64,000 bases of DNA from Candidatus Latescibacterota bacterium (GTDB lineage Bacteria; Latescibacterota; UBA2968; GCA-2709665), in assembly GCA_963667175.2 (NCBI GenBank), contig CAXXXF010000007.1, forward strand, positions 1 to 64,000, read 5' to 3'. This document shows positions 42,721-57,665 of the stretch, piece by piece. Positions within the stretch are counted from its first letter, which is position 1. Each line of letters opens with the position of its first letter. The translations under genes were made by a program, and so were the position numbers. The notes under the pieces were generated by a model. That model made no database searches and was not told where the DNA came from. It worked only from the letters and a program-made list of their open reading frames with translations.

Positions 42721-43680
42721 TTAAAAAAGCCGGGGCGCTGCAGCGGGCCCGGACGTCGAATCGCAAATCAGGTTTTCAAGTGACTCTAATTTGTCAGGAA
42801 TCCACCGTGCGCCCCTCTCGACAAGACTTGCATTGCCCGATTTCCTGTTTTCCGTGCGTTTCACCCAGAGGGGAACCCAGCCGGCTTTCAGGTTTTCGAG
42901 CGCGCCGTTCCACGTTCCCCCCCGGTTCGGCGTACTGCTGACCACAATTCCAGCCGCGGACAGGCAATAGATGTACCGGTTTCGGCCCATCGCGTTGCCG
43001 ACATTGAAACCCGCTTCCGGATTGAAAGGGGTTACCAGCACCAGGTCACGTGAAACAAGAAACTTGCGGTACTTCGCAGATGTCGCCGCCCGGATCAGAC
43101 TGTCCGCCAGAACGCCGACGGCAGTGCCTCCGCTCTCCAGTGCGCTCACCATTGCACTCTGGTCGACCCCGCGGGCTCCGCCCGATACGACCGTATGTCC
43201 CTGCCGAGCGGTGGCGGCGCCCAGTCTCTCCGCGAAAGTAAGGTCCGTTCGGCCGGCATTTCGGGAGCCGACGACGGCGATGCCGCCGCGCGGAAGCAGT
43301 ATCTTGTTTCCGCAGCCGAACAGCACCGGTGGAGATTCCAGCCGAAGCCGGCGTTTCAATTGTACCGGATACTCCGGATCGGATTGAGCAACGACCCACA
43401 GACCCGCACGCTGCCATCTCTCGAGCGACAGACCGAACGCCCCACCACGATCCATCAGGCTCTCGAGTCTGGCCAGCGTAATCGAACGATCCATCCAACC
43501 CGAGAGCTCGTTCTTCAATTCACCCTTCAACAAGGCCGACGCATCCAGCTTGCGATCCTTCAGCCAGGCCGCGAGGCGGGCCCACTCTCTCGGCGAAAGT
43601 GGTTTCGCCGTCGCCCCTTCGGATCTTCCAAACGAAACCGTGAGAAGCATCACCACCTGGGTATGGGAATCCAGATTCAT
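42721..43680 (-). CDS. dprA: DprA/Smf-like protein (island type)
   Basis: PPVLFGCG, AVVGSR, VSGGARGVD, AMGRNRYIY, GGTWNGA. Confidence 0.88.
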   Translation of the reverse strand: MNLDSHTQVVMLLTVSFGRSEGATAKPLSPREWARLAAWLKDRKLDASALLKGELKNELSGWMDRSITLARLESLMDRGGAFGLSLERWQRAGLWVVAQSDPEYPVQLKRRLRLESPPVLFGCGNKILLPRGGIAVVGSRNAGRTDLTFAERLGAATARQGHTVVSGGARGVDQSAMVSALESGGTAVGVLADSLIRAATSAKYRKFLVSRDLVLVTPFNPEAGFNVGNAMGRNRYIYCLSAAGIVVSSTPNRGGTWNGALENLKAGWVPLWVKRTENRKSGNASLVERGARWIPDKLESLENLICDSTSGPAAAPRLF

Positions 43681-43841: not shown

Positions 43842-43895
43842 GAGGGATCCTTCGAGATCCTGCAAGACCACAGGTACGAAAGCCGCGCAGAGCAG

Positions 43896-44045
43896 AAGAA
43901 AGGTTGGAGATGCGCCAACAGTGTGTACGATTTCTCGCTCCGACTGCTTGTTTAGTTAGGTTTATAAGGCCTAACCAAGGAAAGCAGGCGGTCTGTACCT
44001 CATTCGTATTTTATCGACGAGGCAAAAGGCGCATCTCCAATTCTT
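43896..44045 (-). ncRNA. putative DRT3 template ncRNA
   Basis: Perfect 13-bp inverted repeat (43904-43916/44028-44040), three internal hairpins, ACACAC on the minus strand at 43921-43926; starts 12 nt after the drt3b stop. Confidence 0.8.
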
Positions 44046-44057
44046 GCGTGTCGGGCA

Positions 44058-46040
44058 CTATGCGTATACGGTACCCAACTTCTTCTTTTCTATCATTTTC
44101 AGCAGACCGATACCCTTCCAGCGAACAAACCAATGCGTTTTCTCCATCTCGCGTGTGATTTTGCACGCGGTTTCCTTATTGATTGTGCCAATAGCGGAGT
44201 TTCTCCGGTTCAATATTGGCCAAACACCCATCAAGAGTTCACCCCGTTTTGTTGCGTCTATATGAGGGCATGCCAACAGGTCGAGAAGAAGGTGTGTGAG
44301 TTCGGAATTGAAGGTAAGTTCATCCGCGGCCACAATTCTCTCACAAGCCGACCGGAACACATCATCTATTCGGTCTCGAAGACTACAGTCATCTCCATAT
44401 ATAAACAGTTGCACAATCACATTGAAATAACCTGCGTCCCTGAGGTCGGGCTCCGCGACATCCATGAGCTCGGCTGTAAGCGTTCCATCGTCAGTGAATT
44501 CTCTGACGCATGCAAGGATATTTAACAGCTCGATTGGTACAATCCGGTTTCTCTTAATTAGATCTTTCACCGCCGGTGATCTTGCGAACTGATTGGTCCA
44601 CCTAACTATCGCTTCTCGTGCGATCTCAAAACCCTCAGGATCGTGGTCGACGAAGTGTTGTCCCGTTCGCAAGATTGCATGTGAGAGGTTCTGCGATGAT
44701 GCAACCGTTGGATGAAGCATAAAGTAATGGAAACCGACTTCCAAAAGAAACAAGACCACTTGCCTATAGTCCAACGTCGCGATAGCAACTCCGTTTGTTT
44801 TCCTCGTTTGAAGGTGTGAGTCCGCCAGTTCGGTGATCTGGCGATCCACAGTGCTAATGACGTAGCTCGCGACCGCATCATATCCCGCCTGAGCGGCCTG
44901 GCAGGCAGCCTTAACTTCCCGAGTAAAGCTTAGAAAAAGAGAACGCCGTTTCTTGATCCGACTTGGAACGATTAAGCGGGTACCACAATGATCAGTTTCT
45001 TTAAATATTTGATTTTCAAGGTTTTGTATACTTACATCCACCCTGTCAATCACGATAGATTTGCGCGTGTAGAAGGGTCTCTCGAGATTCTCAGTCTTTC
45101 CTTCGTTAAGGTAGAGCTTATATTCAGATAGGGCATTCCGAATTTCATCCTGAATTATAGATGTTGATTCGCGGGTGTTGGCGAAAACATAGTAGTTGTC
45201 TACGTATCGCCGACAGTCAAAGTGGGTCTTTTCAGTAAGTTTAAACTGGTTCAGTCGGTCACGGAGGTTCTGATCGACCTTGGCAAGTATAATCTCGGCA
45301 AAGAGGCGACTCGCTTCCGGTCCTATGCAAATTCCGCTGGTCTCGCCGTAGTTAAGGGATCGCATTACAAGGTCGAATTGATTCCCAAATGATCGCGCTC
45401 TTGGGCTTTTCTTTGCGGACTCTTTATCCGTTACAGCCCATGTAATCGAGTGGGTATATATACTGTCGAAACATTTGCCTATGTCTAATATAAGCATATG
45501 CTTATACTTTTTTTCAAGTTGGATGTAATCTTCCGACGAAAAGAAGCGATACAGTCGGTTATATCGTCGGTAAGTGAAGTAAGTTTCAGGGTTTCTCTCG
45601 ATATTATCGACAGCGGACGCGTCAATTGAAGCATTCTTTCGGTTGTTTTCACCCCCAATAAACGATCTGCCTATACCTACAGGCTTGCGTATCGAAAATG
45701 AGCTCCGTCCGCCAAATTCGCAAATTAGCTGATCGTACTTTTCGTAAAATCTAGCGATTTTTGCCTGCCCGTGCGGATGGATCAGGCTCAGTTTCCTGAC
45801 ACCCTCTTCATCGTGCGCGATCGCATAAATGAACGGGATTGTATAGTTCCGCTTGCAAAGGACCAGAGCACCTATCAGCTCTTTCAATTTATCGGTTTTG
45901 GCATCGCATTCCGACAGGTTCTTGTAGAAACCATCATTGCTGAAAATTATCGGCACCTCAATTGGCGCGGTGTCCGTCAATACCGTTCGCCAGACGTCTG
46001 AACGGTTAAGTCGTACACGTCTCTTGGATGGGCTAGGCAT
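44058..46040 (-). CDS. drt3b: defence-associated reverse transcriptase Drt3b
   Basis: 660 aa; PIEVPIIFSN, LDIGKCFDSIYTHSITWA, GICIGPEASRLFAE, RYVDN. Confidence 0.9.
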   Translation of the reverse strand: MPSPSKRRVRLNRSDVWRTVLTDTAPIEVPIIFSNDGFYKNLSECDAKTDKLKELIGALVLCKRNYTIPFIYAIAHDEEGVRKLSLIHPHGQAKIARFYEKYDQLICEFGGRSSFSIRKPVGIGRSFIGGENNRKNASIDASAVDNIERNPETYFTYRRYNRLYRFFSSEDYIQLEKKYKHMLILDIGKCFDSIYTHSITWAVTDKESAKKSPRARSFGNQFDLVMRSLNYGETSGICIGPEASRLFAEIILAKVDQNLRDRLNQFKLTEKTHFDCRRYVDNYYVFANTRESTSIIQDEIRNALSEYKLYLNEGKTENLERPFYTRKSIVIDRVDVSIQNLENQIFKETDHCGTRLIVPSRIKKRRSLFLSFTREVKAACQAAQAGYDAVASYVISTVDRQITELADSHLQTRKTNGVAIATLDYRQVVLFLLEVGFHYFMLHPTVASSQNLSHAILRTGQHFVDHDPEGFEIAREAIVRWTNQFARSPAVKDLIKRNRIVPIELLNILACVREFTDDGTLTAELMDVAEPDLRDAGYFNVIVQLFIYGDDCSLRDRIDDVFRSACERIVAADELTFNSELTHLLLDLLACPHIDATKRGELLMGVWPILNRRNSAIGTINKETACKITREMEKTHWFVRWKGIGLLKMIEKKKLGTVYA

Positions 46041-47265
46041 ATTTCCAACATTTGATTAGCTGATTGAGTCTGTCCGGTGGAAAGTGGAAGTGGATTCTAT
46101 TGACGAACCCACCAGTAAATGTCAGTCTGAGCAACTCCTTCCTTTGAGATTTCGAAAGTACCTGCGCCAACGGACCACAGATTTTCCCTGTATTGGAGAG
46201 AAGGACCTTTCTCAAGAACTGATCCAGCTCCGTTAAAGCCGATGAAGGCCAGCTTATCAGTCCGTATGTATGGTACACACCCGCAAATCGGACGCGATCA
46301 TTTTTCGAGTCGTGAAAACTATAGTTGCAAGTCAGTAGCTTAAGACGATCGTGTAAGTCCTTGAAATCTTGGTCCCTAATGAATTGGAGCAGAGATCGTA
46401 TCACTCGGGTTTTTCGTTTGTTGATCTTTGATCGAGCGATGTCGATTCTAACCGTTCGGTCGTATGGAATTGAGTTTCCAATCTCGTGGACTTCAAAAGA
46501 GAAACCCAAATATTCGAACCTGTGTTCGATCGTTGGATTTGGGCTACGTTTGTTGCGAAATTCAATCAATCTGGTCTTCCGCGCGTTTAATCGTAGACCC
46601 ATAGGCAGAAGGTTTGCTATTTCCTTACGGAAAGACTTAAAATCACCGTCCGGTTGTGCGACTACAATGATGTCGTCGACGTACCTACAATACAACCGTA
46701 TCAATGATTTAGTTCTAACTTGACCGTCAAAGTCTTGCATATAGAATTCGCTCAACGCAGCGCTTATTGATAAACCGCGAGGCATACCACTGACACAATT
46801 GACAGCACACTGATCGATAAATCTGCCGAGGACAAGCCTCGTGCCGGGCGCTGTGAGCAAACGACATCTCAACAGTTCCTTCAAGTTATCTTGATCGATT
46901 GTTTCGTAAAAGCTCTGGATGTCGATTTTCGCTACGCAATACGGAAGCCCCTCTTCAAGAAGTAGCCGAAGGCGTCGAACAATCTCCACCCGGTTGCTCT
47001 GTTTCGTGTTCGCTATCGTTCGGAGATTCTCGGCCGCTTTCCGCAACACAAGCTCAGACGGAAGATGAGTCAGACGGTAGACTAACTTTCCTGATACGGA
47101 GTTGGTCTGCAATCGAAGATCCGTGAACCCGTTTCTACCAATTTCAGCGGCCTTGTTGATTATGGACGTACGCTTTATCGGATCTGTAAGTGACGGGTAT
47201 CGGCGGAAGTCGCTTGTGCGTATGTGGCGTTCAAGCGAACTCGCACTGAATGTAGGATCATACAT
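46033..47265 (-). CDS. drt3a: defence-associated reverse transcriptase Drt3a
   Basis: 410 aa; IDIQSFYETI, GMPRGLSISAALSE, RYVDD, FEYLGFSF; overlaps drt3b by 8 nt. Confidence 0.9.
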   Translation of the reverse strand: MYDPTFSASSLERHIRTSDFRRYPSLTDPIKRTSIINKAAEIGRNGFTDLRLQTNSVSGKLVYRLTHLPSELVLRKAAENLRTIANTKQSNRVEIVRRLRLLLEEGLPYCVAKIDIQSFYETIDQDNLKELLRCRLLTAPGTRLVLGRFIDQCAVNCVSGMPRGLSISAALSEFYMQDFDGQVRTKSLIRLYCRYVDDIIVVAQPDGDFKSFRKEIANLLPMGLRLNARKTRLIEFRNKRSPNPTIEHRFEYLGFSFEVHEIGNSIPYDRTVRIDIARSKINKRKTRVIRSLLQFIRDQDFKDLHDRLKLLTCNYSFHDSKNDRVRFAGVYHTYGLISWPSSALTELDQFLRKVLLSNTGKICGPLAQVLSKSQRKELLRLTFTGGFVNRIHFHFPPDRLNQLIKCWKYA

Positions 47266-47546: not shown

Positions 47547-48464
47547 TCAATTAGCTTCGTTGCCAGCTATGCTGGCCAAGGTCGCCGCGGATACATCACA
47601 GCCTTTAGCCAAGTACCCAATTCCGGCCTCAGACAACCGCGATGTCAACTCGTCGGAAAACCAGTTCGCCAAGGTTATTGCGAATTTGCACGGGATGTCA
47701 AACTCGCAGTCGTAGTAACGCGAAAGAAATGGAACGTCATTCACAGGAACATTCGGTACTTCATCTGTGAGTTCGGCATAGGCCAGAGTCTGAATCATGT
47801 GAAGTGTGAGTCGGGTAAACCATGCCATTCTATACGCACCGACGGATAGGCTCTGTGAGCCATCGTGCATCACCAAGTTTACCAAATCATCAGGTTCTGG
47901 GAGGTTGTCATTGCCGTGAAAAACATGGTCTCTAAACCCTGCGATCAGCAGGCCGGCCTTACCAAGCAGAGTGACCTCGCTCCCCTTCAATAGCCTCCGG
48001 CGGATAGCTGTCTTGTCCGTAGCAAGGGACAGACTGATCTGGTACACCGAAGTCACCAAATCGACGTGTGCGGGTGGAACCGCATTGAGCAATTCAATTC
48101 GGGCTTTATTACCCTTGGTTGTCAGTTGGCGGCCAGACAGAGACCGATGTCGGATCAACTCGTATGCATTCCAAACAAAATGAAAACGCACGAGTTCCAG
48201 CATGTAATCATCCAAAAGGTCACTTTGCCGATTATCATAAGCTGATGCACTGGAGCAATAGGACCAAGCCTTGTAGAGGTCTGCGGCAGATGCGTCTGTA
48301 ACGACACGTGAAACAGATGCGGGTGGGAACAAGGAATTTGCCGCCGAATACCACACAGACGATTCCCCCCGCATCACGTCATGGCCTTGGAACAGCTCAA
48401 GAAGGAAGCGCATCCGGGCGGACACTGTAGCCAGTGAAACGCGATGTGCAATTTGAATCTCCAC
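47547..48464 (-). CDS. hypothetical protein with HEPN-like motifs
   Basis: FHFVWNAYE helix and R-x4-H motif RDHVFHG. Confidence 0.55.
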   Translation of the reverse strand: MEIQIAHRVSLATVSARMRFLLELFQGHDVMRGESSVWYSAANSLFPPASVSRVVTDASAADLYKAWSYCSSASAYDNRQSDLLDDYMLELVRFHFVWNAYELIRHRSLSGRQLTTKGNKARIELLNAVPPAHVDLVTSVYQISLSLATDKTAIRRRLLKGSEVTLLGKAGLLIAGFRDHVFHGNDNLPEPDDLVNLVMHDGSQSLSVGAYRMAWFTRLTLHMIQTLAYAELTDEVPNVPVNDVPFLSRYYDCEFDIPCKFAITLANWFSDELTSRLSEAGIGYLAKGCDVSAATLASIAGNEAN

Positions 48465-48708: not shown

Positions 48709-49143
48709 TCACCCCACACTCACCGCCCCCAACAACACCGCCGGATTCTCGATTTCCTCGTTGAATGCAGCGTTTGCGAGTTTCTGGTCGAATGTCGCCA
48801 AACTGGCCTCGCGCCGGGTCGCCGTCTCGAGATAGCTCGCGTCATATACGGTCAGGTTGTGTCTTTGCGCGAGGTCCAGGACCGCGGCCTCGTTGCGTTC
48901 CGTGTCCTCGCACAATGAAAACCCGTCGGTCAGTTGAATCAGACATGCATCGAACTGCCGTTGGTTTATCCGGTTGAAGCGCTTAGCGTTGAGCAAGACG
49001 TTCCGAATCTCATACCAGAAGATGATCGGCGTGATGCTCTCAGTGGTATCGAGGTGTTCGAGAATCGTGCGCGCAAAGTGACTATAAACTTCGTCAGGCA
49101 GTAGTTGGGCCCCCATCACCGACGCGTCGATTACGGTGGCCAT
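48709..49143 (-). CDS. vapC: PIN-domain VapC toxin
   Basis: VIDASV, WYEIRNVL, LTVYDASYLE, LATFDQKL acidic PIN residues. Confidence 0.9.
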   Translation of the reverse strand: MATVIDASVMGAQLLPDEVYSHFARTILEHLDTTESITPIIFWYEIRNVLLNAKRFNRINQRQFDACLIQLTDGFSLCEDTERNEAAVLDLAQRHNLTVYDASYLETATRREASLATFDQKLANAAFNEEIENPAVLLGAVSVG

Positions 49144-51986
49144 CAGCCCCGGCCCTCCTCTTTCCATTGGCGGATTTCGTCTTGCGTGACTGGCCTCATC
49201 TCGCGTTGGCGTTCACTTGATTCGTTAAGCGCTTTTTTCCACAACAACGCGCCGAAAGTCCGGTGCTCGTCAGAGAACTCTGACTGGTTTATCCTCGTGT
49301 ATTTCCAGGCCTTTCCAGTGGCTTCGCTTACCCGCTTGCACCAATCCCTTGCAGCGTCGTCTTTTCGTTCAGTCCCTGGCCACTCACGGCCCTTGGTTTC
49401 GACAATCCAACTGACTTCGCCGCCCCCGACTTTCTGGACCACCACCCAATCGGGGAAATAGAAGCCGATTGCCCCACTCTTCTTCAGGTAATCGATCCTA
49501 AACGTGGATGCGGAACTCCCCTGTTCTGTGGTACCGAGCGCAGCGAAACGTGTGACGTCTCCAGCGCGGTCCAGGAAAACTGCGAATTCGCGCTCAAAGT
49601 GGTTGTACGTAGCCACGAGATTGAAGATAGTCTTCCTTGCCTCCATTAGTGGCAGATTTCTTTTCCAACCAAAGCGTTTCGTCATAGATAGTCGGAAATC
49701 CTCTTTTTCAAATGTTACCGCACGCCGCTCAATGGATAGTTCCCCGATCTTGCCCGCGATGTACGTGGCGATACTTTCTTGTAACTCCAATCTCGCTAGA
49801 TGGGAGCGGACATTATTATCCGTCAGTTCGATCTTGCGTCCAAAACATCGGTTTGAAACATAATTCTGTACGATAGGGTAAATTTCCGCGAAACAGTTGG
49901 TAAGGTTAGCGCGGTCAGCGGTCTTGTTGGCGATACTCGCCAAGAGTTCACGGGCTGAATTTGGTTCTACAGCAATGTCCGCCTGATGTACCTCCGTCTC
50001 GGTAGTAGCAAATTCCATTCTCAGGCGTATCCGGTATGCTTCGGATAGTTCTTGCCTCTGGTGAATTGCCTCAAGTAAATGAACTTTCAGCGCGGACACC
50101 TTCCGAAAATCATGGGTTAGAGTTGGCTTTGTGATCGGTATGGCGATGTCGTAATTCAGCCGTTCAAGCACGGGTTCGATGTAGACTGGCAACGGCGGGT
50201 TCTTTTTGGTGGTTACGACTCCTACCCCCTCCACTTCGAGTTGATGACGCAAGACGTTGAGCAGGTTGCGCGTGCCAAGCACTTCGAGTGTCTGGGTCTG
50301 GTCGGGGCTTATTTGCGTCATTAGCCGAAGTCCGCGACCGATGGCCTGTTCGGGAAGGATCTCAGCCGTCGCGGTGAATGGGCGTAAACCGAGAACTACC
50401 GTCACGTTCCGCACGTTCCATCCCTCGCGCAACATCATCACACTGACGATTACCTTAATTCTGCTCTCGGGCTTATCGATATCCCGCGCCGCTTTACGTG
50501 CTTTCTCAATGTCTCCTCTTCGAATTTCCCCAGTGTTGTCAGTGTGGATAACGAGCACTTCGGATTCCTTGAATCCGAATTCCTCCGTTTTGCACAGGTA
50601 CTCTCCCATTACATCAGCATGGGCGTTTTTCTCAGCCATAACAAAAAGCACTGGCCTCATGTTGAGTTTCCTATAAATCCGCCAGTGTTCCTTCCAACGC
50701 TGGACGGCGGCTCTTAACCAATATCCGTATTTCTCCACGACGTTTTTCTTATTGACGCTGTTGGGGTCTTCTGCAGGTTGATCTGGATCATCTTCTTTGC
50801 TGACGATGATGGGCGCCTTGACGATCCTATCCTCCACGGCCTGCGCCAATGGATAGTCCACGACTGTCCATGGGAAGTACATCCCGTTCTGGTCCTTGGG
50901 TGTGGCAGAAAAGTCGAGCCACATGCTGAGGCCCCGTGGCAACTTATCGTTAATGGATAGAAGCGATTGGCTCCAGGTTAGATCTTCCCTATGGACATGG
51001 TGCGCTTCGTCATTTAGTACGACGAGGTCCGGAAGTGACTTTACGCGATCCAACATTGAACGATGACCGGATGCCGCGAGGTCTTGTACGGGTTTCTTGC
51101 CCAGCATGAATTCAGCGGCGTTTTGCGGAGTCGGCCTCTTGTAGCGAGATTCGTAGAGTTGATGAATATTGGTGAGAAACAGATTCCCGGAAGGGTCGGG
51201 CTCAGCGGCTTCACCACGCAGGATCACCTTTTGAGAGAAAGTGCCATACCATTCCGGAGGTATTAACGGCAGTTCGTGGAATACCTGGTTGTTTGCAAAG
51301 TCCTTCTCCAACCGCTGGTAGACAATGACGTTAGGCGCCACGATGAGGAAGTTTGTGGAGAGCTCCGATCCTGGAACTAACTGCTTATGGAAGCGCGACC
51401 AAACAACTGCCATCGCCATCGCCCACGTCTTGCCGGAACCCGTGGCCATCTTGAAGGCAAATCGCCGGAGATTATCGGGCGGTAGGTCCTGTTCGCCGAC
51501 GCCATTCAGTTCCGGAACATATCGGCGAATCCGTCTTATTCCATTCGGTGTTGTTCTAAACTCGAGGTTCATCGATAGGAGGTCTTTTCGCTGAATCGAG
51601 CCTTGGGCCTTAATGAGAGCTTGAACATCGAGCTGACCCGCTATTTCCACCAACCAGACCAGTGTTTCTATAGCTTCCCTTTGGCAGAAGTAGTACCGAA
51701 ATGGAACGTCAAATCCGTCGACAATGTGGTCCTCGTCGAACCAAAATTCGAACAGGCGTCGCGTAACATCCGATGCCCCCTCATATCCCCCATTGCGCCA
51801 CGCATCAACTGCCTCGCGAACCTTCGGCACCAAAAGAAGATTACTTGGACGCCTTCCCGAACAATCCTCTCGCCATCCGGTTGGCACTTCGTCATCTCTG
51901 ACGAGGTAGGATGTTGGCCTTTCCCATGGACGCCGGTGTCGGATTTCGGGTAAATCGTCGTCGTATCTGATAACGGCTTTGGCCAT
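49143..51986 (-). CDS. res: type III restriction enzyme Res-like SF2 helicase-nuclease
   Basis: KMATGSGKT, NDEAHH, FSATP, MLREGWNV, EQAIGRGLR, PD..VETKG. Confidence 0.9.
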   Translation of the reverse strand: MAKAVIRYDDDLPEIRHRRPWERPTSYLVRDDEVPTGWREDCSGRRPSNLLLVPKVREAVDAWRNGGYEGASDVTRRLFEFWFDEDHIVDGFDVPFRYYFCQREAIETLVWLVEIAGQLDVQALIKAQGSIQRKDLLSMNLEFRTTPNGIRRIRRYVPELNGVGEQDLPPDNLRRFAFKMATGSGKTWAMAMAVVWSRFHKQLVPGSELSTNFLIVAPNVIVYQRLEKDFANNQVFHELPLIPPEWYGTFSQKVILRGEAAEPDPSGNLFLTNIHQLYESRYKRPTPQNAAEFMLGKKPVQDLAASGHRSMLDRVKSLPDLVVLNDEAHHVHREDLTWSQSLLSINDKLPRGLSMWLDFSATPKDQNGMYFPWTVVDYPLAQAVEDRIVKAPIIVSKEDDPDQPAEDPNSVNKKNVVEKYGYWLRAAVQRWKEHWRIYRKLNMRPVLFVMAEKNAHADVMGEYLCKTEEFGFKESEVLVIHTDNTGEIRRGDIEKARKAARDIDKPESRIKVIVSVMMLREGWNVRNVTVVLGLRPFTATAEILPEQAIGRGLRLMTQISPDQTQTLEVLGTRNLLNVLRHQLEVEGVGVVTTKKNPPLPVYIEPVLERLNYDIAIPITKPTLTHDFRKVSALKVHLLEAIHQRQELSEAYRIRLRMEFATTETEVHQADIAVEPNSARELLASIANKTADRANLTNCFAEIYPIVQNYVSNRCFGRKIELTDNNVRSHLARLELQESIATYIAGKIGELSIERRAVTFEKEDFRLSMTKRFGWKRNLPLMEARKTIFNLVATYNHFEREFAVFLDRAGDVTRFAALGTTEQGSSASTFRIDYLKKSGAIGFYFPDWVVVQKVGGGEVSWIVETKGREWPGTERKDDAARDWCKRVSEATGKAWKYTRINQSEFSDEHRTFGALLWKKALNESSERQREMRPVTQDEIRQWKEEGRG

Positions 51987-51988
51987 TC

Positions 51989-54049
51989 CTATTCCACCTC
52001 AATATCCATCGCTTGGGAAGTGTCGTTACCGAATATATCTATCACTTTGACTAAGATCCTATACTTACCTGGCGATTCATATTTGTGAGAATCGCTTGTC
52101 AGCGCGAGCGTTCGATCATTACGGGTCCGATAAGCCACCCATCCCTGCATAAAGGAGTCGTTACGGAAGTCCCAGTCCACCGCCCAATAGTCGATGTAGT
52201 CGGACCACTTCGTAACCTTTTCCCGCACTTCGTCAGGGATGAGTTCCGAATTCGGAATAACAAAATCGTCCAGCTTCACCCCAATTGTCTGCTTTGTCGG
52301 CTTAACGATGACTGCATTTAGATATGCGAGCTCGAAGAAGCGCACATCGTTCCTGTCCACAGCCTGCTGTTCCATCACTTCCCGAGGAATCTGCAGGAGA
52401 ATAAGCTTTACGCCTCTTGCTCTAGCAACGTTGTGCATCAACCCTCCGCTACGCACGCTGTTCTGCCCCGCAAGACCCATCTCCCACTCCCAGCCGAGTA
52501 CATGAAGTTCCCCCTGCCTTAATCGGATGCACTCGTCAAGTCCGTGTTGTATCTCGTCGATGGTAACGGGCGCCTCGACGGCGCCTATATGCACTAGGGC
52601 CTTTCCTTTCTTCCCGTGCAGATGTACCGATCCCGAAATCGGCTGAGCGCCGTAAAGCTTAAGGATGAAAGCCAAATATTCATACAATGCACGCTCACTT
52701 ATCACCCTATTCGACTTTTCGCCAAAGGTCATACCTTGCCAGTACTGGCGTTCGTATTTACCCAGATTCAGAACCTCAAAAGGCTGGCAATTCTGTATAC
52801 CCTGTAGCCGCTTTCGTGTGACATGCATAGCCCAGCGACCGAGATCACATCCGATCCATCGTCGGCCGAGTTTTTCGGCGATGGCTAGTGTTGTACCGGA
52901 ACCGCAAAAAAAGTCTGCGACAATGTCGTTAGGTCGACTGATCCATTCAACAATCCGAGTTAACAGCTGCTCGTGTTTTTGAGTCGCGTAGTCCTTGAGA
53001 TTCTCATATGTCTTTATGTCATCCCAAACTGTGTCTCCGACTTTATCGTTACGAGGTGGAAACCAATTTTCTACAGTTCCAGTTGAAGATTTCCGGATAA
53101 ATTCCAGCGTGCGACCCGTATCCCGCCAATATTCGACCAATGACCGATCGCGCCTATCTCTTAGGAACTGGTTGTAGTTTTCTACTGCGCGTAGCGCTCT
53201 CTTTTTTTGCCATTTCCACTGTCCATGGGTCGGTGTCTCCGAAAGCAATTTATACCTCATACTAGGCCGGTTAGCACCGCTCCAGAATCGATGCCAATAT
53301 CCGTCGGGTGTCGGGCTTTCGTAAGGAACCAACAGGTTTGGGACCCTTGTACTAGATTGTGCAGAGTACCAAAGCAACACATCATGACCTTGTGGTAACG
53401 ACGAAATGACATTGAACTGTCTTTGTAGATTTTTCGTTATGGGTCTGTGAAGCACTATTTCATTTCTGAAATTGTCGGCTCCGAAAATTTCATCTAACAT
53501 CAGCCTTAGGTATGGGCTTACATTTGGCGCCACGTGAACAAACAGGTGGCTCGCCGGTGACATTAAGGATTTTATCAGTTTCAAACGCTCGTTCATCATC
53601 GCCATGTAGCTGATTAGTCCCTGTCCCCATGTATCGCGGTAAGCTTTATCCTCGACAACTGATGCCGCCTTCTCAACTCTGAGATCTTCGTCACCAACCT
53701 TTGTCGAGAATGAGAAATCCGCCCCAGTTGCAAACGGCGGATCGATGTAAATCAGATCGACCTTTCCCGAAAACCTCGCAAGTAGCGAACCCATCACCAG
53801 CAGGTTATCGCCCCAGATGAGCTTGTTTTTCCAGCCATCTTCAAACGTGTCCCCCTCCTTACCGTCGTAAATGTCAAAAAGGGAACTCTGAACCCCTTCC
53901 TTTTTTGCTTCGCGTGTGGCGCGGCTTTCGTTGACAGTCTCGATCACCTGGAAGGGTAGATTGACTCGCGGAACTTCCCTTAGAGTTCCATCTTCGTTGT
54001 ACTTGCCGGGCCAGACTAACTCAGTCCTCGCAATGTCATTCTTTGCCAT
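51989..54049 (-). CDS. mod: type III Mod-like adenine DNA methyltransferase
   Basis: WGDNL, IYIDPPF, TQKHEQLL, DFFCGSGTT (beta-class order). Confidence 0.92.
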   Translation of the reverse strand: MAKNDIARTELVWPGKYNEDGTLREVPRVNLPFQVIETVNESRATREAKKEGVQSSLFDIYDGKEGDTFEDGWKNKLIWGDNLLVMGSLLARFSGKVDLIYIDPPFATGADFSFSTKVGDEDLRVEKAASVVEDKAYRDTWGQGLISYMAMMNERLKLIKSLMSPASHLFVHVAPNVSPYLRLMLDEIFGADNFRNEIVLHRPITKNLQRQFNVISSLPQGHDVLLWYSAQSSTRVPNLLVPYESPTPDGYWHRFWSGANRPSMRYKLLSETPTHGQWKWQKKRALRAVENYNQFLRDRRDRSLVEYWRDTGRTLEFIRKSSTGTVENWFPPRNDKVGDTVWDDIKTYENLKDYATQKHEQLLTRIVEWISRPNDIVADFFCGSGTTLAIAEKLGRRWIGCDLGRWAMHVTRKRLQGIQNCQPFEVLNLGKYERQYWQGMTFGEKSNRVISERALYEYLAFILKLYGAQPISGSVHLHGKKGKALVHIGAVEAPVTIDEIQHGLDECIRLRQGELHVLGWEWEMGLAGQNSVRSGGLMHNVARARGVKLILLQIPREVMEQQAVDRNDVRFFELAYLNAVIVKPTKQTIGVKLDDFVIPNSELIPDEVREKVTKWSDYIDYWAVDWDFRNDSFMQGWVAYRTRNDRTLALTSDSHKYESPGKYRILVKVIDIFGNDTSQAMDIEVE

Positions 54050-54114
54050 AATGGTGTTCCTCTTATGCACCAAAGAGAAGAGACCGATTGTTTGGGAATC
54101 TATTCCGTCCCGTA

Positions 54115-56979
54115 TCAATTGGCCACTTCTGATCTTTCGATTACGCCTTCCGAATGGCACAGCATCCGCAGGTCGCACTCCTGGCAGATTTTCGCCTCGG
54201 GTGGCGTTTCGACCGCGAACTGTCCTGTCTGAATTCGATGAACCGTCTCGTCGAAGTGCCGTCCCGCCTTTTCCACGGATTCCGGTCGGTACGGCAGGAC
54301 CATCAACGCTTGTTCCTTCTGTTCCTCAGCGGTCCAATAAAGGAGCAGACGGTCAACGTGTTTTCCGTGTCGCTGCTCCAGAATGTGCGCATACGTACAG
54401 AGTTGCCGTTTGTACGCCGAGATAAGCTCGGTGGAGTTCGTCGGACGTGGGGACGTCTTGAAATCAAGCAGTTCCAGCTTTCCGTCGCCGCCGAGCAACA
54501 GGTCCACTTTTCCGGTCAGGATGTATCCGTCCTTCTCGAGCGAGACGTCCACCTCAGTCTCAACGATCCGGTTCATTGCCTCCTGATTCTGTTGAAAATA
54601 GTTGATTACCTGGGTGAATGCCAGTTCTTTTGCTTTTTCGCCGATCGGACGCCTGCCGGAATGGTGCAGAAACCGGAACGTCCGCTCAAACAACACCTGT
54701 ATGTGTTCCTCGTTCAGCGTATCAAGCTGCCCGTCGAGCGCGAATCTGTGGATGTCCTCAATTGTCTGATGGACGAGCAGTCCGAAGTACATCTCGGCGG
54801 AACGTGAGGGGGTAAAGTCGTATTCGCGGAAGAATTGGTATTGACGAGGGCAGGTTTCGTAAACCTTCAGGTCGCCGGTGAAGCTGTAGGTCTTTTTCAC
54901 CGGCATCCGCTCCTGAGGTTCGAAGGACTGAGCGGCCAGCGTTTCCCTCCGGACGTACGGCCATTGCGGGAGCCCCTGCCAGATTGACGCGAAGTAACCC
55001 TTCGGCTGATCGTGGGCTGTAAGTACGAGCAACTTCTGCGGCCTCGAAAATGCCACGTAATGCAATCGCATCCGATCGAAGAGGGTGATCCGTTCCTCGG
55101 GCTCGAAGGGCGGGCGGTGATAGAATTGCCCGAGATGGCGGTCGATTTGCTTTGGGCTGCTAAGAGATACGGTAAGCGACCCAACCACGACCACGGGAAA
55201 CTCCAGCCCCTTCGCCTGATGGATGGTCATGACCTGAACGTGGCCCCTTGGGAACGGCCGGTCCGGATCCTCGTATTCGTTGATGCCGCCGGCGTATAGG
55301 AACCGTAAGAAGCTGCTGAAAAAGTGAAAGCGGATATACTCGCGATTCCTGTGCGTAATCACCGAGTAGTGGTAGTAGGTTTGAAAGACATTCAGCAGCT
55401 CAGAAAAAATGGCCAGGTTGCGGGCGATGTTTTCGTCGCGAACGGCACTCCTGAACGGTTCAAACGCGAGCAATCGGTAGAAATAATCAGCGGGACGCAG
55501 GTCGAGCGTCTCTCCCTCCTGAAGTGCGGCCATTTCATCTGTCCATCGTCTGAGGGCTGCGGACAGCGGGTGCGGAGGAGCGCAGTTTTCACTGAGCTCG
55601 ACAATGGCCTCGTCCACATACGTAGCGAGTTGCTTTACCACACCGGCGATTTCCCCACGCTGATCCCCATACCAACCGAACAGGACGGCATAACAGGCGA
55701 CAAGATCGCGAATCACCGGAATTTCGAAAAAGGCGCGTGCCCTTGGACAGAACGCCGGGATTCCCTTGCGCTCGAGCGCATCCGTATAGGGTCCACTGTG
55801 TTCTACGCGTACGCTATGTAGCAATAAGGCAACTTGACTGTAGTCTGAAATAATGCCGTTCACTTTCAGGAAATCGACCATGTCAGCAAATCGGTCGGCT
55901 TCATCAGTACTGTCGCTGCCCCATATGCTGATAACGGAAGGGTAATCCGGGTGCGTCCCTTCAGCGTCTGCGACGATCGTCTTGTCGTGACGGTACGATC
56001 CCCCATCCCGGTTGGACCAATCGCTTGAGGCCATCCAGCGGTCGTAGCGTTCCACAATCGCACTGTGGGACCGGTAATTGGTTGTCAGCCGTGCGATCCG
56101 GCAATCCCCGACGTTGTCCGCGAACTCCAGGATGTTGCGTACGGTCGCGCCCCTGAAGCGATAGATGCTCTGGTCCTCGTCTCCAACGACGCACAGATTT
56201 TTCTCGGTTCCCGCCAACTTGAGGAGAAGCTGTTCCTGGATGTAATTCGTGTCCTGGTATTCGTCTACCAGAAGATACCGCACGTCCGGAGCCACAGCTT
56301 CCGCTTGTGGGTCTTGCTCTAACAGCCCGTAAACATGCCTTTGCAGGTGGGCGAAATCGACCCGGTTGCCCGCCGATAGGGCCCGCACATAACGTTGATA
56401 GGCGGAACCGATCGCCGCGACGAACGAGTCGTCGGATGCTGCAAGTCGGCAAGGATCGACCAGTTCTTCCGTGATCTTGTCAAAAAAGCCGCGTGCGCCC
56501 TGAATCGCCGTCCAGCGCGTCGTCCAACGCGTGAGGAACTTGCCGTCTTCGGAAGGACCGATAATCTCGTCAAAGTGTTCAAATATGAACAGCAGTTGTG
56601 TCAACTCGTCCAGCGTTTCGTAGTTGTGTCCGAGCGCCGTGCGGTGCCGGTGTTGGGAAAGCACGCGGTCGCAGAATCCGTGGATGGTGGAAACTGTGAG
56701 CTCAGAAAGGTCTACGTCGAATCGAACCGTGCGAGCGGCTGCCGCCAGCCGGTCCCGCATTTCAAAGGCGGCCTTTTCGGTGAAGGTGCACAACACGATC
56801 TCCTTCGGCTCAGCCTTTCCCAACATCAATAGATTCAATGCCCGCAGGACGATGCTGAACGTCTTGCCGGAGCCCGGTCCCGCAATCACGAGCAACGGGC
56901 CGTCCAGATGGCCAACGACTTCCCGCTGACTGTGCGTGAGTTCCGGATAGTGCCTCAGTATGGCCGGCGTAATATTCAC
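54115..56979 (-). CDS. UvrD/REP helicase fused to PD-(D/E)xK (Cas4/AddB-like) nuclease
   Basis: AGPGSGKT, VDEYQD, GDEDQSIYRFRGA, TIHQAKGLEF; CPRQY..GKVDL..DFKT..CQEC..C. Confidence 0.9.
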   Translation of the reverse strand: MNITPAILRHYPELTHSQREVVGHLDGPLLVIAGPGSGKTFSIVLRALNLLMLGKAEPKEIVLCTFTEKAAFEMRDRLAAAARTVRFDVDLSELTVSTIHGFCDRVLSQHRHRTALGHNYETLDELTQLLFIFEHFDEIIGPSEDGKFLTRWTTRWTAIQGARGFFDKITEELVDPCRLAASDDSFVAAIGSAYQRYVRALSAGNRVDFAHLQRHVYGLLEQDPQAEAVAPDVRYLLVDEYQDTNYIQEQLLLKLAGTEKNLCVVGDEDQSIYRFRGATVRNILEFADNVGDCRIARLTTNYRSHSAIVERYDRWMASSDWSNRDGGSYRHDKTIVADAEGTHPDYPSVISIWGSDSTDEADRFADMVDFLKVNGIISDYSQVALLLHSVRVEHSGPYTDALERKGIPAFCPRARAFFEIPVIRDLVACYAVLFGWYGDQRGEIAGVVKQLATYVDEAIVELSENCAPPHPLSAALRRWTDEMAALQEGETLDLRPADYFYRLLAFEPFRSAVRDENIARNLAIFSELLNVFQTYYHYSVITHRNREYIRFHFFSSFLRFLYAGGINEYEDPDRPFPRGHVQVMTIHQAKGLEFPVVVVGSLTVSLSSPKQIDRHLGQFYHRPPFEPEERITLFDRMRLHYVAFSRPQKLLVLTAHDQPKGYFASIWQGLPQWPYVRRETLAAQSFEPQERMPVKKTYSFTGDLKVYETCPRQYQFFREYDFTPSRSAEMYFGLLVHQTIEDIHRFALDGQLDTLNEEHIQVLFERTFRFLHHSGRRPIGEKAKELAFTQVINYFQQNQEAMNRIVETEVDVSLEKDGYILTGKVDLLLGGDGKLELLDFKTSPRPTNSTELISAYKRQLCTYAHILEQRHGKHVDRLLLYWTAEEQKEQALMVLPYRPESVEKAGRHFDETVHRIQTGQFAVETPPEAKICQECDLRMLCHSEGVIERSEVAN

Positions 56980-57665
56980 AGAAGTCCTGCATTCCTGAAG
57001 CTGAAGGTCTCCGAGGCGGAAACGATCAGATGGTCGACGACCCGAAGGCTGATGGTTTCAGCTGCGAGTGAAATTGCGCGTGTTACCAATTTGTCGTGCT
57101 CGCTCGGCTCAAGGTTCCCGTTCGGATGGTTGTGCGCGAGCACCACCGCCGCTGCCTCGCGCCGGAGCGCCGCCTCAACGACGCGGCGCGGATATACCGC
57201 CGCCCTGTCAATCGTGCCTTGCTGGAGCGTTTCAACGCCGTCGCGAAGCAACCGATGCGCCGTGTCGAGGTACGCGACGGCGAACACTTCGTGTTTCAAG
57301 TGGCCGATCTCCATCCGCCAGAAGTCGCTCAATTTTTCGGGTTCATTGAGAACCTGCGTTTCCTCGGAAGTCTCAAGCAGGTAGCGTGTTGCGGCTTCGC
57401 GGATCACCTTCAGCGAGACCGCGGCAACCTCGCCGATGCCCTTTACAGACTGTAACTCGGCCGGCGGGGCATCGAGGATGCCGCGCAAGCTGCCGAAGCG
57501 CTTGAGCAGCGCCTTTGCCTGCTGCTTCACGTCGGAACGAGGAATCGCCAGCGTCAACAACAACTCAACGCACTCATGCTCGGCGAATCCGGAAAAACCG
57601 GACTTGAGAAAACGTTCGCGAAGGCGCTTCCGGTGGCCATGGTAATGTGGGTCTATCGTCGCCAT
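56976..57665 (-). CDS. radC: RadC/JAB-domain protein
   Basis: GHRKRLRERF, HhH KGIG, AHNHPNGNLEPSEHD, DHLIV. Confidence 0.93.
   Translation of the reverse strand: MATIDPHYHGHRKRLRERFLKSGFSGFAEHECVELLLTLAIPRSDVKQQAKALLKRFGSLRGILDAPPAELQSVKGIGEVAAVSLKVIREAATRYLLETSEETQVLNEPEKLSDFWRMEIGHLKHEVFAVAYLDTAHRLLRDGVETLQQGTIDRAAVYPRRVVEAALRREAAAVVLAHNHPNGNLEPSEHDKLVTRAISLAAETISLRVVDHLIVSASETFSFRNAGLL

Follow-up and report, generated by a model that had tools for sequence, protein, structure and literature searches.

DRT3 is an anti-phage system in which two reverse transcriptases (RTs), Drt3a of the UG3 type and Drt3b of the UG8 type, are combined with a non-coding RNA (ncRNA). The ncRNAs found downstream of UG8 genes were sorted into groups 1-17 with group-specific folds and sequences that are little conserved; an exposed 'CACACA'-like motif, conserved throughout, was proposed to act in recognition or attachment (Mestre et al., 2022, NAR, PMC9226505). 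In this study, we analyzed a 64,000-nucleotide (nt) stretch of DNA from Candidatus Latescibacterota bacterium (assembly GCA_963667175.2, contig CAXXXF010000007.1, positions 1 to 64,000 of the forward strand), hereafter the window, and a locus on its minus strand that, from its sequence, very probably constitutes a complete DRT3 system (UG3 + UG8 + ncRNA). It would be a new example of a published system: the system itself, its ncRNA, the ACACAC template and the protein-templated second strand all appeared in print between 2022 and 2026, and little is new in principle here.

The mechanism of the E. coli system was reported by Wang et al. (2026, bioRxiv, PMC13174585). There, the ncRNA lies downstream of drt3b, and a conserved loop ACACAC is required for both defence and poly(dTdG) synthesis, mutation of the motif abolishing both. 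Drt3a copies this RNA template into poly(dTdG), for which it needs the RNA and only dGTP and dTTP, and read-through into a template-adjacent 'stem-loop 4' truncates the products. Drt3b forms a hexamer, primes on Y666 and makes poly(dCdA) without a nucleic-acid template, the alternation of dA and dC being set by E22 and R241 together with R71. The two DNA products anneal with each other and are held in check by RecBCD, and abortive infection is set off by lambda Gam. The same authors built a covariance model of the ncRNA that comprised 41 systems, and described Drt3a as related to the RTs of DRT10. A 6:6:6 complex of Drt3a, Drt3b and RNA was reportedly shown by Deng et al. (2026, as cited in the review PMC13314766 and in Wang et al., 2026), and the review ascribes a structural role to the RNA in this complex. 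An earlier, sequence-only reading of the locus had stated that Drt3a reiteratively copies ACACAC into poly(GT) and that Drt3b makes poly(AC) without a template, which matches the account of Wang et al. (2026, PMC13174585).

At the locus studied here, two intact RT genes are followed by a conserved, covarying RNA of ~137-155 nt that presents ACACAC on the 3' side of a GNRA hairpin (Table 1), and all published functional residues but one are present in the RT pair. The reading of the locus as DRT3 with an ACACAC-bearing ncRNA was thereby supported, and the observation on which it was built was confirmed. The two genes and the ncRNA lie on one strand, in the order drt3a, drt3b, ncRNA, and are tightly linked: the ATG of drt3b (46040-46038) and the TAG of drt3a (46035-46033) define the 8-nt gene overlap that had been claimed, and the spacer between the drt3b stop and the closing stem of the RNA measures 17 nt (44057-44041), not the 12 nt given before.

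Both proteins were identified over their full length. Drt3a matched the PADLOC Drt3a model at 1.1e-130, the NCBIfam equivalog NF041747 with 369.1 bits (cut-off 200) and the solved Drt3a chain PDB 9z6y_A at 1e-62 (aligned residues 1-409), and its motif C, RYVDDIIVV, carries an intact YVDD in the translation. Drt3b matched PADLOC Drt3b at 8.9e-187 (aligned residues 6-659) and the equivalog NF041748 with 574.6 bits (cut-off 350), and aligned end-to-end, to the last tyrosine (Tyr), with the solved chains 9z6y_H (1e-97) and 26cz_A (1.2e-76); phmmer comparisons with the two solved Drt3b proteins gave 261.9 and 331.5 bits. By PADLOC, NCBIfam and the end-to-end structure alignments, the protein is thus a UG8-type class 1 RT with a helical-repeat domain and a C-terminal tail. 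Among Pfam families, RVT_1 alone was matched in both RTs. An assignment of Drt3a to DRT10 (UG17) was rejected, as RT_UG17 ranked fourth among its PADLOC matches (3.7e-28 vs 1.1e-130 for Drt3a), and a DRT10 reading of the locus was rejected likewise, no neighbour gene matching a DRT10 component (a SLATT effector would be expected). The naming of the proteins as Drt3a and Drt3b thus holds by the PADLOC models, the NCBIfam equivalogs and the full-length matches to the solved 9z6y and 26cz. They had also been called divergent homologues; the best non-self database match is 64% identical, which agrees with this, but since both proteins exceed the NCBI equivalog cut-offs, a standard pipeline would name both.

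Counting along the alignment with 26cz_A, with the E. coli numbering of Wang et al. (2026, PMC13174585), we located the counterparts of the published gating, metal-binding and priming residues in Drt3b (Table 1). All six (E28, R82, D186, R245, D281 and Y659) are invariant in an alignment of 16 sequences of 33-64% identity. In 81 rows, made up of the window and the 80 related loci introduced below, R82, D186 and R245 show no exception (81/81), whereas position 28 carries E in 61 rows and D in 18, with one H and one row unaligned there. In a public protein collection, Drt3b appears as a 640-amino acid (aa) product that starts 20 codons downstream (window 45981-46040, minus strand). The query is covered completely (100%) by homologues of 665-668 aa, and because homologues and solved structures align from residues 1-8, the ATG at 46040 is favoured over that start.

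The RNA segment folds with a minimum free energy (MFE) of -65.5 kcal/mol, compared with -38.96 +/- 3.79 kcal/mol for 200 dinucleotide shuffles (z = -7.0; 0/200 as good). Its outer helix, P1, is the perfect 13-bp stem that had been noticed in the sequence, UUGGAGAUGCGCC pairing with GGCGCAUCUCCAA. Of the hairpins proposed inside it, the one at 43940-43991 (SL3) was reproduced exactly by the MFE fold; the one at 43998-44022 is real but forms just the inner part of SL2; and the CGA-GAAA-UCG tetraloop hairpin at 43928-43937 proved to be the core of the 4-bp SL4. ACACAC (43926-43921) is unpaired as described, but the single U said to precede it is not free, for U43927 forms a G-U pair with G43938. 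The description of the segment as free of open reading frames (ORFs) stands to the extent that 43904-44040 encloses no ORF of at least 50 aa, although two mechanical minus-strand ORFs touch its edges. Within the window's clade, the linker UACAGAC between the first two hairpins (43991-43997, minus strand) and the GAGC leading into the small hairpin (43937-43940, minus strand) are nearly invariant while the helices vary; these single-stranded stretches could be protein contacts. Rfam 15 holds no family matching the ncRNA, its two matches elsewhere being chance snoRNA matches at E about 1-2, and the genome annotation misses the ncRNA because of this; the expectation that standard annotation would overlook this RNA gene was a fair one.

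The conservation of stem and motif among homologues, named beforehand as a point on which the reading could fail, was examined in a scan of one genome per species. The scan gave 410 confirmed Drt3b loci, and 80 of these, 24-55% identical to the window's Drt3b, were kept; in 79/80, drt3b is immediately preceded by a drt3a homologue. Within the 300 nt that follow the drt3b stop, ACACAC was present in 77/78 loci outside the window with at least 264 nt of downstream sequence (78/79 with the window included; L073 and L079, whose downstream sequence is cut off, were left out), as against 62/1569 (4.0%) control windows of 300 nt taken from the same loci. Its reverse complement, GTGTGT, was present in 5/79 downstream windows, that of the window included. 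Across the 78 sequences with the motif, the base that follows it is T in 48, C in 20 and A in 10, and never G (window position 43920). The sole locus with full-length downstream sequence that carries neither ACACAC nor any of three near hexamer variants within 420 nt is L030 (4466-4885), where the ncRNA may lie elsewhere or may have been lost. In L015 (2501-4345), the Drt3b match does not begin until query residue 47 and the 2.5-kb upstream flank yielded no drt3a, so this operon may be truncated; its ACACAC RNA is present, at 108 bits as a training row of the covariance model described below.

Covariation supports a shared fold in the nearer relatives. An RNAalifold consensus of seven window-clade sequences contains 41 pairs in four elements, 22 of them with compensatory change, and a covariance model (R1) was built from these seven, the window among them. 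R1 had a single match, both within the window and across the 5.5-Mb genome, at 43895-44049 (133.1 bits, E 3.4e-30), a score that follows by construction from a training row; the independent support lies in the matches outside the training set. Immediately behind drt3b in each case, there were 13 such loci with E <= 1.1e-5 and a further two with E <= 2e-4; the weaker matches (E 0.02-0.97) comprised another six loci and two on the wrong strand. In an alignment of 22 sequences, 93.5% of 842 cells are standard pairs, compared with 67.6% after shuffling and 33-41% when partners were slid by 1-3 columns; 34/41 pairs change on both sides, and 0/500 shuffles reached any of five measures. The alignment was fitted to the model and therefore favours structure, but the slid controls share this bias and yet fall far below. 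The changes are spread over the fold, with changes on both sides in 12/14 pairs of P1 (helices 1 and 2), 8/9 of SL2 (helix 3) and 12/14 of SL3 (helices 4 and 5), and SL4 (helix 6) is 100% paired.

For distant loci, three features were counted in unconstrained MFE folds of 78 sequences and of 234 shuffled-flank controls. A long-range closing stem was formed in 74/78 real and 118/234 shuffled sequences, a hairpin ending no more than 3 nt 5' of ACACAC (at a distance of 0 or 1 nt in all cases listed) in 70/78 and 69/234, and all three features, the third being ACACAC with at least 5/6 of its bases unpaired, in 47/78 and 8/234. Both the stem and ACACAC are thus conserved among homologues, and with the 80 loci the closing stem, the template-abutting hairpin and the unpaired ACACAC hold to about 29% Drt3b identity. 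In L072 (4511-4586) and L077 (4511-4588), ACACAC stands only 38-40 nt after the drt3b stop in a fold of ~50-60 nt, consisting of a short closing stem and a single hairpin that abuts the motif. Both loci are distant ones, and their RNAs may be miniature forms without the two large hairpins. A reading of the structure and ACACAC as chance features of an intergenic spacer, or of the segment as coding for a small protein, could cite the two mechanical ORFs that touch it, but its probability is reduced to a negligible level by the fold energy, the recurrence of ACACAC far above background, the strong covariation in the 22-sequence alignment and the lack of any counterpart of the 78-aa ORF next to drt3b in the 80 loci.

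Most likely, the operon transcript yields the RNA as its 3' part, judging from the 17 nt between stop and stem and from the fact that no promoter-like site was found between drt3b and the ncRNA, a weak test that gave no more sites than expected from shuffles and is uninformative for this organism. A different role for the segment would be that of a scaffold or of the 3' end or terminator of the operon, with ACACAC serving as a protein-binding motif and not as a template. The recognition or attachment role proposed by Mestre et al. (2022, PMC9226505) and the structural role of the RNA in the 6:6:6 complex (review PMC13314766) both fit such a function, and the stretch 43919-43903, which includes the P1 3' arm, scores as terminator-like and is followed by CUUUCUUCUG. 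Terminator-like sites, however, number 6, no excess over shuffles (4.5 +/- 1.9); in E. coli, moreover, both poly(dTdG) and defence were lost on mutation of the motif, and Drt3a required the RNA with dGTP and dTTP alone (Wang et al., 2026, PMC13174585). A scaffold role would also be compatible with templating. We therefore regard a non-template function as very improbable and continue to read ACACAC as a putative template.

By homology to E. coli, the following course can be proposed for this locus. First, the ncRNA would arise as the 3' end of the drt3ab transcript and be bound by Drt3a, which would copy C43921 to A43926 into GTGTGT, and do so repeatedly to yield poly(dT-dG). SL4, whose closing pair begins at the next base, would form the 5' template boundary at which Drt3a halts; that SL4 is this boundary is likely, given its abutting position in the MFE folds and the published placement of stem-loop 4. 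The GT product would slip back on the three-fold AC repeat and re-align, so that the cycle recurs, as in telomerase. Second, Drt3b would prime on Y659 and add alternating dC and dA, with E28, R82 and R245 in place of a template. Third, the two strands would anneal into GT/AC duplex DNA, which host end-processing nucleases would keep low until a phage disturbs them; accumulation of the duplex would then abort infection.

Several observations weigh against the reading of the locus as a DRT3 system that works as in E. coli. The base before the template is U here and in six other sequences, compared with C in 71/78 sequences. ACACAC has at least 5/6 of its bases unpaired in the MFE folds of only 50/78 sequences (80/234 shuffled controls). 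No right-strand R1 match at E <= 1 was obtained in 53/81 sources; because the model missed them, it is the MFE counts that speak for a shared fold in these. The trigger logic of E. coli relies on RecBCD, and a profile search of the 95%-complete genome did not find RecC (PF04257) or AddB of either the alpha or the Gram-positive type; RecB and AddA models matched ORFs of 1171 and 1093 aa below cut-offs only. The guard role of RecBCD published for DRT3 may therefore apply to this host only in altered form, if at all. Finally, motif C of Drt3b reads YVDN, where all five solved class 1 relatives compared have two aspartates (Asp), and the published inactive Drt3b mutant, YVAA, has both Asp changed (Wang et al., 2026, PMC13174585) and so says nothing on the second Asp alone. 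As a side observation, the regions of the genome noted for the question of RecB- or AddA-like genes are C15:435465-438773 and C11:88849-89640.

Drt3b retains the first Asp of motif C (D281), and the second is asparagine (Asn; N282). D-D stands at this site in both solved Drt3b proteins (26cz, 9z6y) and in three solved class 1 relatives (7r08, 9wy8, 21ou). The second Asp of RT motif C usually helps to hold a catalytic metal. This would suit a DRT3 system in which Drt3b is weakened or dead, and which makes mainly or only the poly-GT single strands of Drt3a or operates in a mode other than that of E. coli. YVDN is, however, no private lesion. Y[VI]DN is found in 23/81 rows and in 84/111 full-length proteins among the best database matches, a sample biased towards the window's clade, in which the N form predominates; all of these are open frames. 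On a FastTree phylogeny of the 111 proteins, D and N switched 6 times, at least 5 of the switches being forced by well-supported branches (24.4 with shuffled labels), which suggests that Asp and Asn are interchangeable at this position. The N-type loci all keep ACACAC and the primer and gating residues, and a dead polymerase would not be expected to show, as N- and D-type proteins alike do, an invariant primer Tyr, first Asp and gating E/R/R. In the E. coli Drt3b structure as described by Wang et al. (2026, PMC13174585), moreover, magnesium (Mg) is held by D182, I183 and D278, and not by the second Asp, D279.

An impaired Drt3b is accordingly improbable, and a tolerated Asn at the second motif C position is the preferred reading of these comparisons; the natural variation of the family, as seen in its sequences, includes Y[VI]DN. 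Residues that might compensate for N282 were sought, but the differences between N- and D-type proteins are spread over the whole protein, as in a clade-wide divergence, and no new acidic residue is prominent. A literature search, which did not extend to Deng et al. (2026) or to supplements, returned no DRT paper mentioning YVDN. It is a tentative suggestion, and a rather doubtful one, that Drt3b of this lineage works with a single motif C carboxylate and that the host restrains the duplex DNA without canonical RecBCD. If so, the second Asp would be dispensable for protein-primed, protein-templated synthesis, and the exchange of D and N may adjust how metal is used or how fast poly(AC) is made, hence the balance of strands and the threshold of the trigger. 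YVDN would in any case be a natural active-site variant that could be tested cheaply.

Table 1. Features of the DRT3 locus, corresponding residues of Drt3b, and neighbouring genes (positions in the window).
Feature	Position	Strand	Remarks
drt3a	46033-47265	minus	ORF 410 aa, UG3-type class 2 RT
drt3b	44058-46040	minus	ORF 660 aa, UG8-type class 1 RT
Drt3b motif C Y-V-D-N, residues 279-282	45195-45206	minus	translation and alignments
Drt3b E28			gating residue; E. coli E22
Drt3b R82			gating residue; E. coli R71
Drt3b D186			E. coli D182
Drt3b R245			gating residue; E. coli R241
Drt3b D281			Mg ligand; E. coli D278
Drt3b Y659			primer tyrosine, second to last residue; E. coli Y666
DRT3 ncRNA core	43904-44040	minus	137 nt, first to last base of closing stem P1; fold and covariance model
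P1 5' arm UUGGAGAUGCGCC	44028-44040	minus	MFE fold
Hairpin SL2	43996-44024	minus	MFE fold
Hairpin SL3	43940-43991	minus	longest; MFE fold; preceded by linker ACAGAC, conserved in clade
Hairpin SL4 GCGA-GAAA-UCGU	43927-43938	minus	4 bp, GNRA loop; abuts template
ACACAC template (putative)	43921-43926	minus	unpaired; sequence and MFE fold
P1 3' arm GGCGCAUCUCCAA	43904-43916	minus	4 nt (UGUU, unpaired) after template
Mechanical ORF, 51 aa	44011-44166	minus	touches ncRNA edge
Mechanical ORF, 78 aa	43682-43918	minus	touches ncRNA edge
PsyrA-like DprA-fold protein	42721-43680		downstream; PADLOC 6.6e-128
305-aa ORF	47547-48464	minus	just upstream of drt3a; no Pfam, PADLOC or NCBIfam match
PIN protein	48709-49167	minus	upstream
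Type III restriction subunit	49143-51986	minus	upstream
Type III methylase subunit	51989-54178	minus	upstream
UvrD-type helicase fused to PD-(D/E)XK nuclease	54115-56979	minus	upstream
RadC-like gene	56976-57665	minus	upstream of DRT3

The locus lies in a stretch of distinct composition. The guanine-cytosine (GC) content is 61-68% in windows up to 28 kb, 47-61% from 30 kb on and 46.5-47.8% over DRT3, and the low-GC stretch (30000-64000) is rich in defence-type genes. The nearest neighbours were considered as extra parts of the system and rejected: nothing corresponding to the 305-aa, PIN, PsyrA-like or 78-aa ORFs was found within 2.5 kb of any of the 80 loci. Since these four do not recur, DRT3 is a self-contained cassette among other defence-type genes. 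Among 30 relatives of the genome, a true Drt3b was found only in one of the same genus (G010, 55% identity); two others gave weak matches of ~150-170 aa (E 5e-5 and 7e-6), which we read as other RTs. This patchy spread is consistent with horizontal transfer. The locus thus offers a clean, intact and phylogenetically distant example of DRT3, a 47%-GC cassette in a low-GC, defence-rich stretch of a genome of 63-67% GC.

Compared with known systems, the locus stands closest to E. coli DRT3 (solved chains 26cz, 9z6y and 9z6z). The gene order drt3a, drt3b, ncRNA is the same, both RT families match, the penultimate primer Tyr and the E/R/R gating residues are common to both, and in both, with the E. 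coli RNA compared by its description, ACACAC is exposed beside a stem-loop in a closed multi-hairpin RNA. The two differ in that the proteins are distant, Drt3b has YVDN in place of YVDD, and U in place of C precedes the template; the host here is of high GC, RecC was not found in it by profile search, and the locus is known from sequence alone. The ncRNAs of UG3 + UG8 loci described by Mestre et al. (2022, PMC9226505) are reproduced here in position, group-specific fold and exposed CA repeat, the binding role there having been a guess.

Similar strategies are seen in more distant systems. DRT10 (UG17) and telomerase likewise copy a short internal template repeatedly, with a structured boundary alongside (PMC12632851); DRT10, however, is protein-primed, has longer repeats and carries a SLATT effector, whereas a second, template-free RT and no effector gene are present at this locus. 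AbiK, Abi-P2 and DRT4 (UG15; PDB 7r06, 7r08 and 21ou) share the RT core with Drt3b (E 1e-10 to 1e-20); they are class 1, protein-primed and untemplated, and the logic of priming on a terminal Tyr is common to them and Drt3b. In contrast to these enzymes, which act singly and whose DNA products are random or homopolymeric, Drt3b is paired with Drt3a and an RNA and, by its E. coli counterpart, would make a strict AC repeat.

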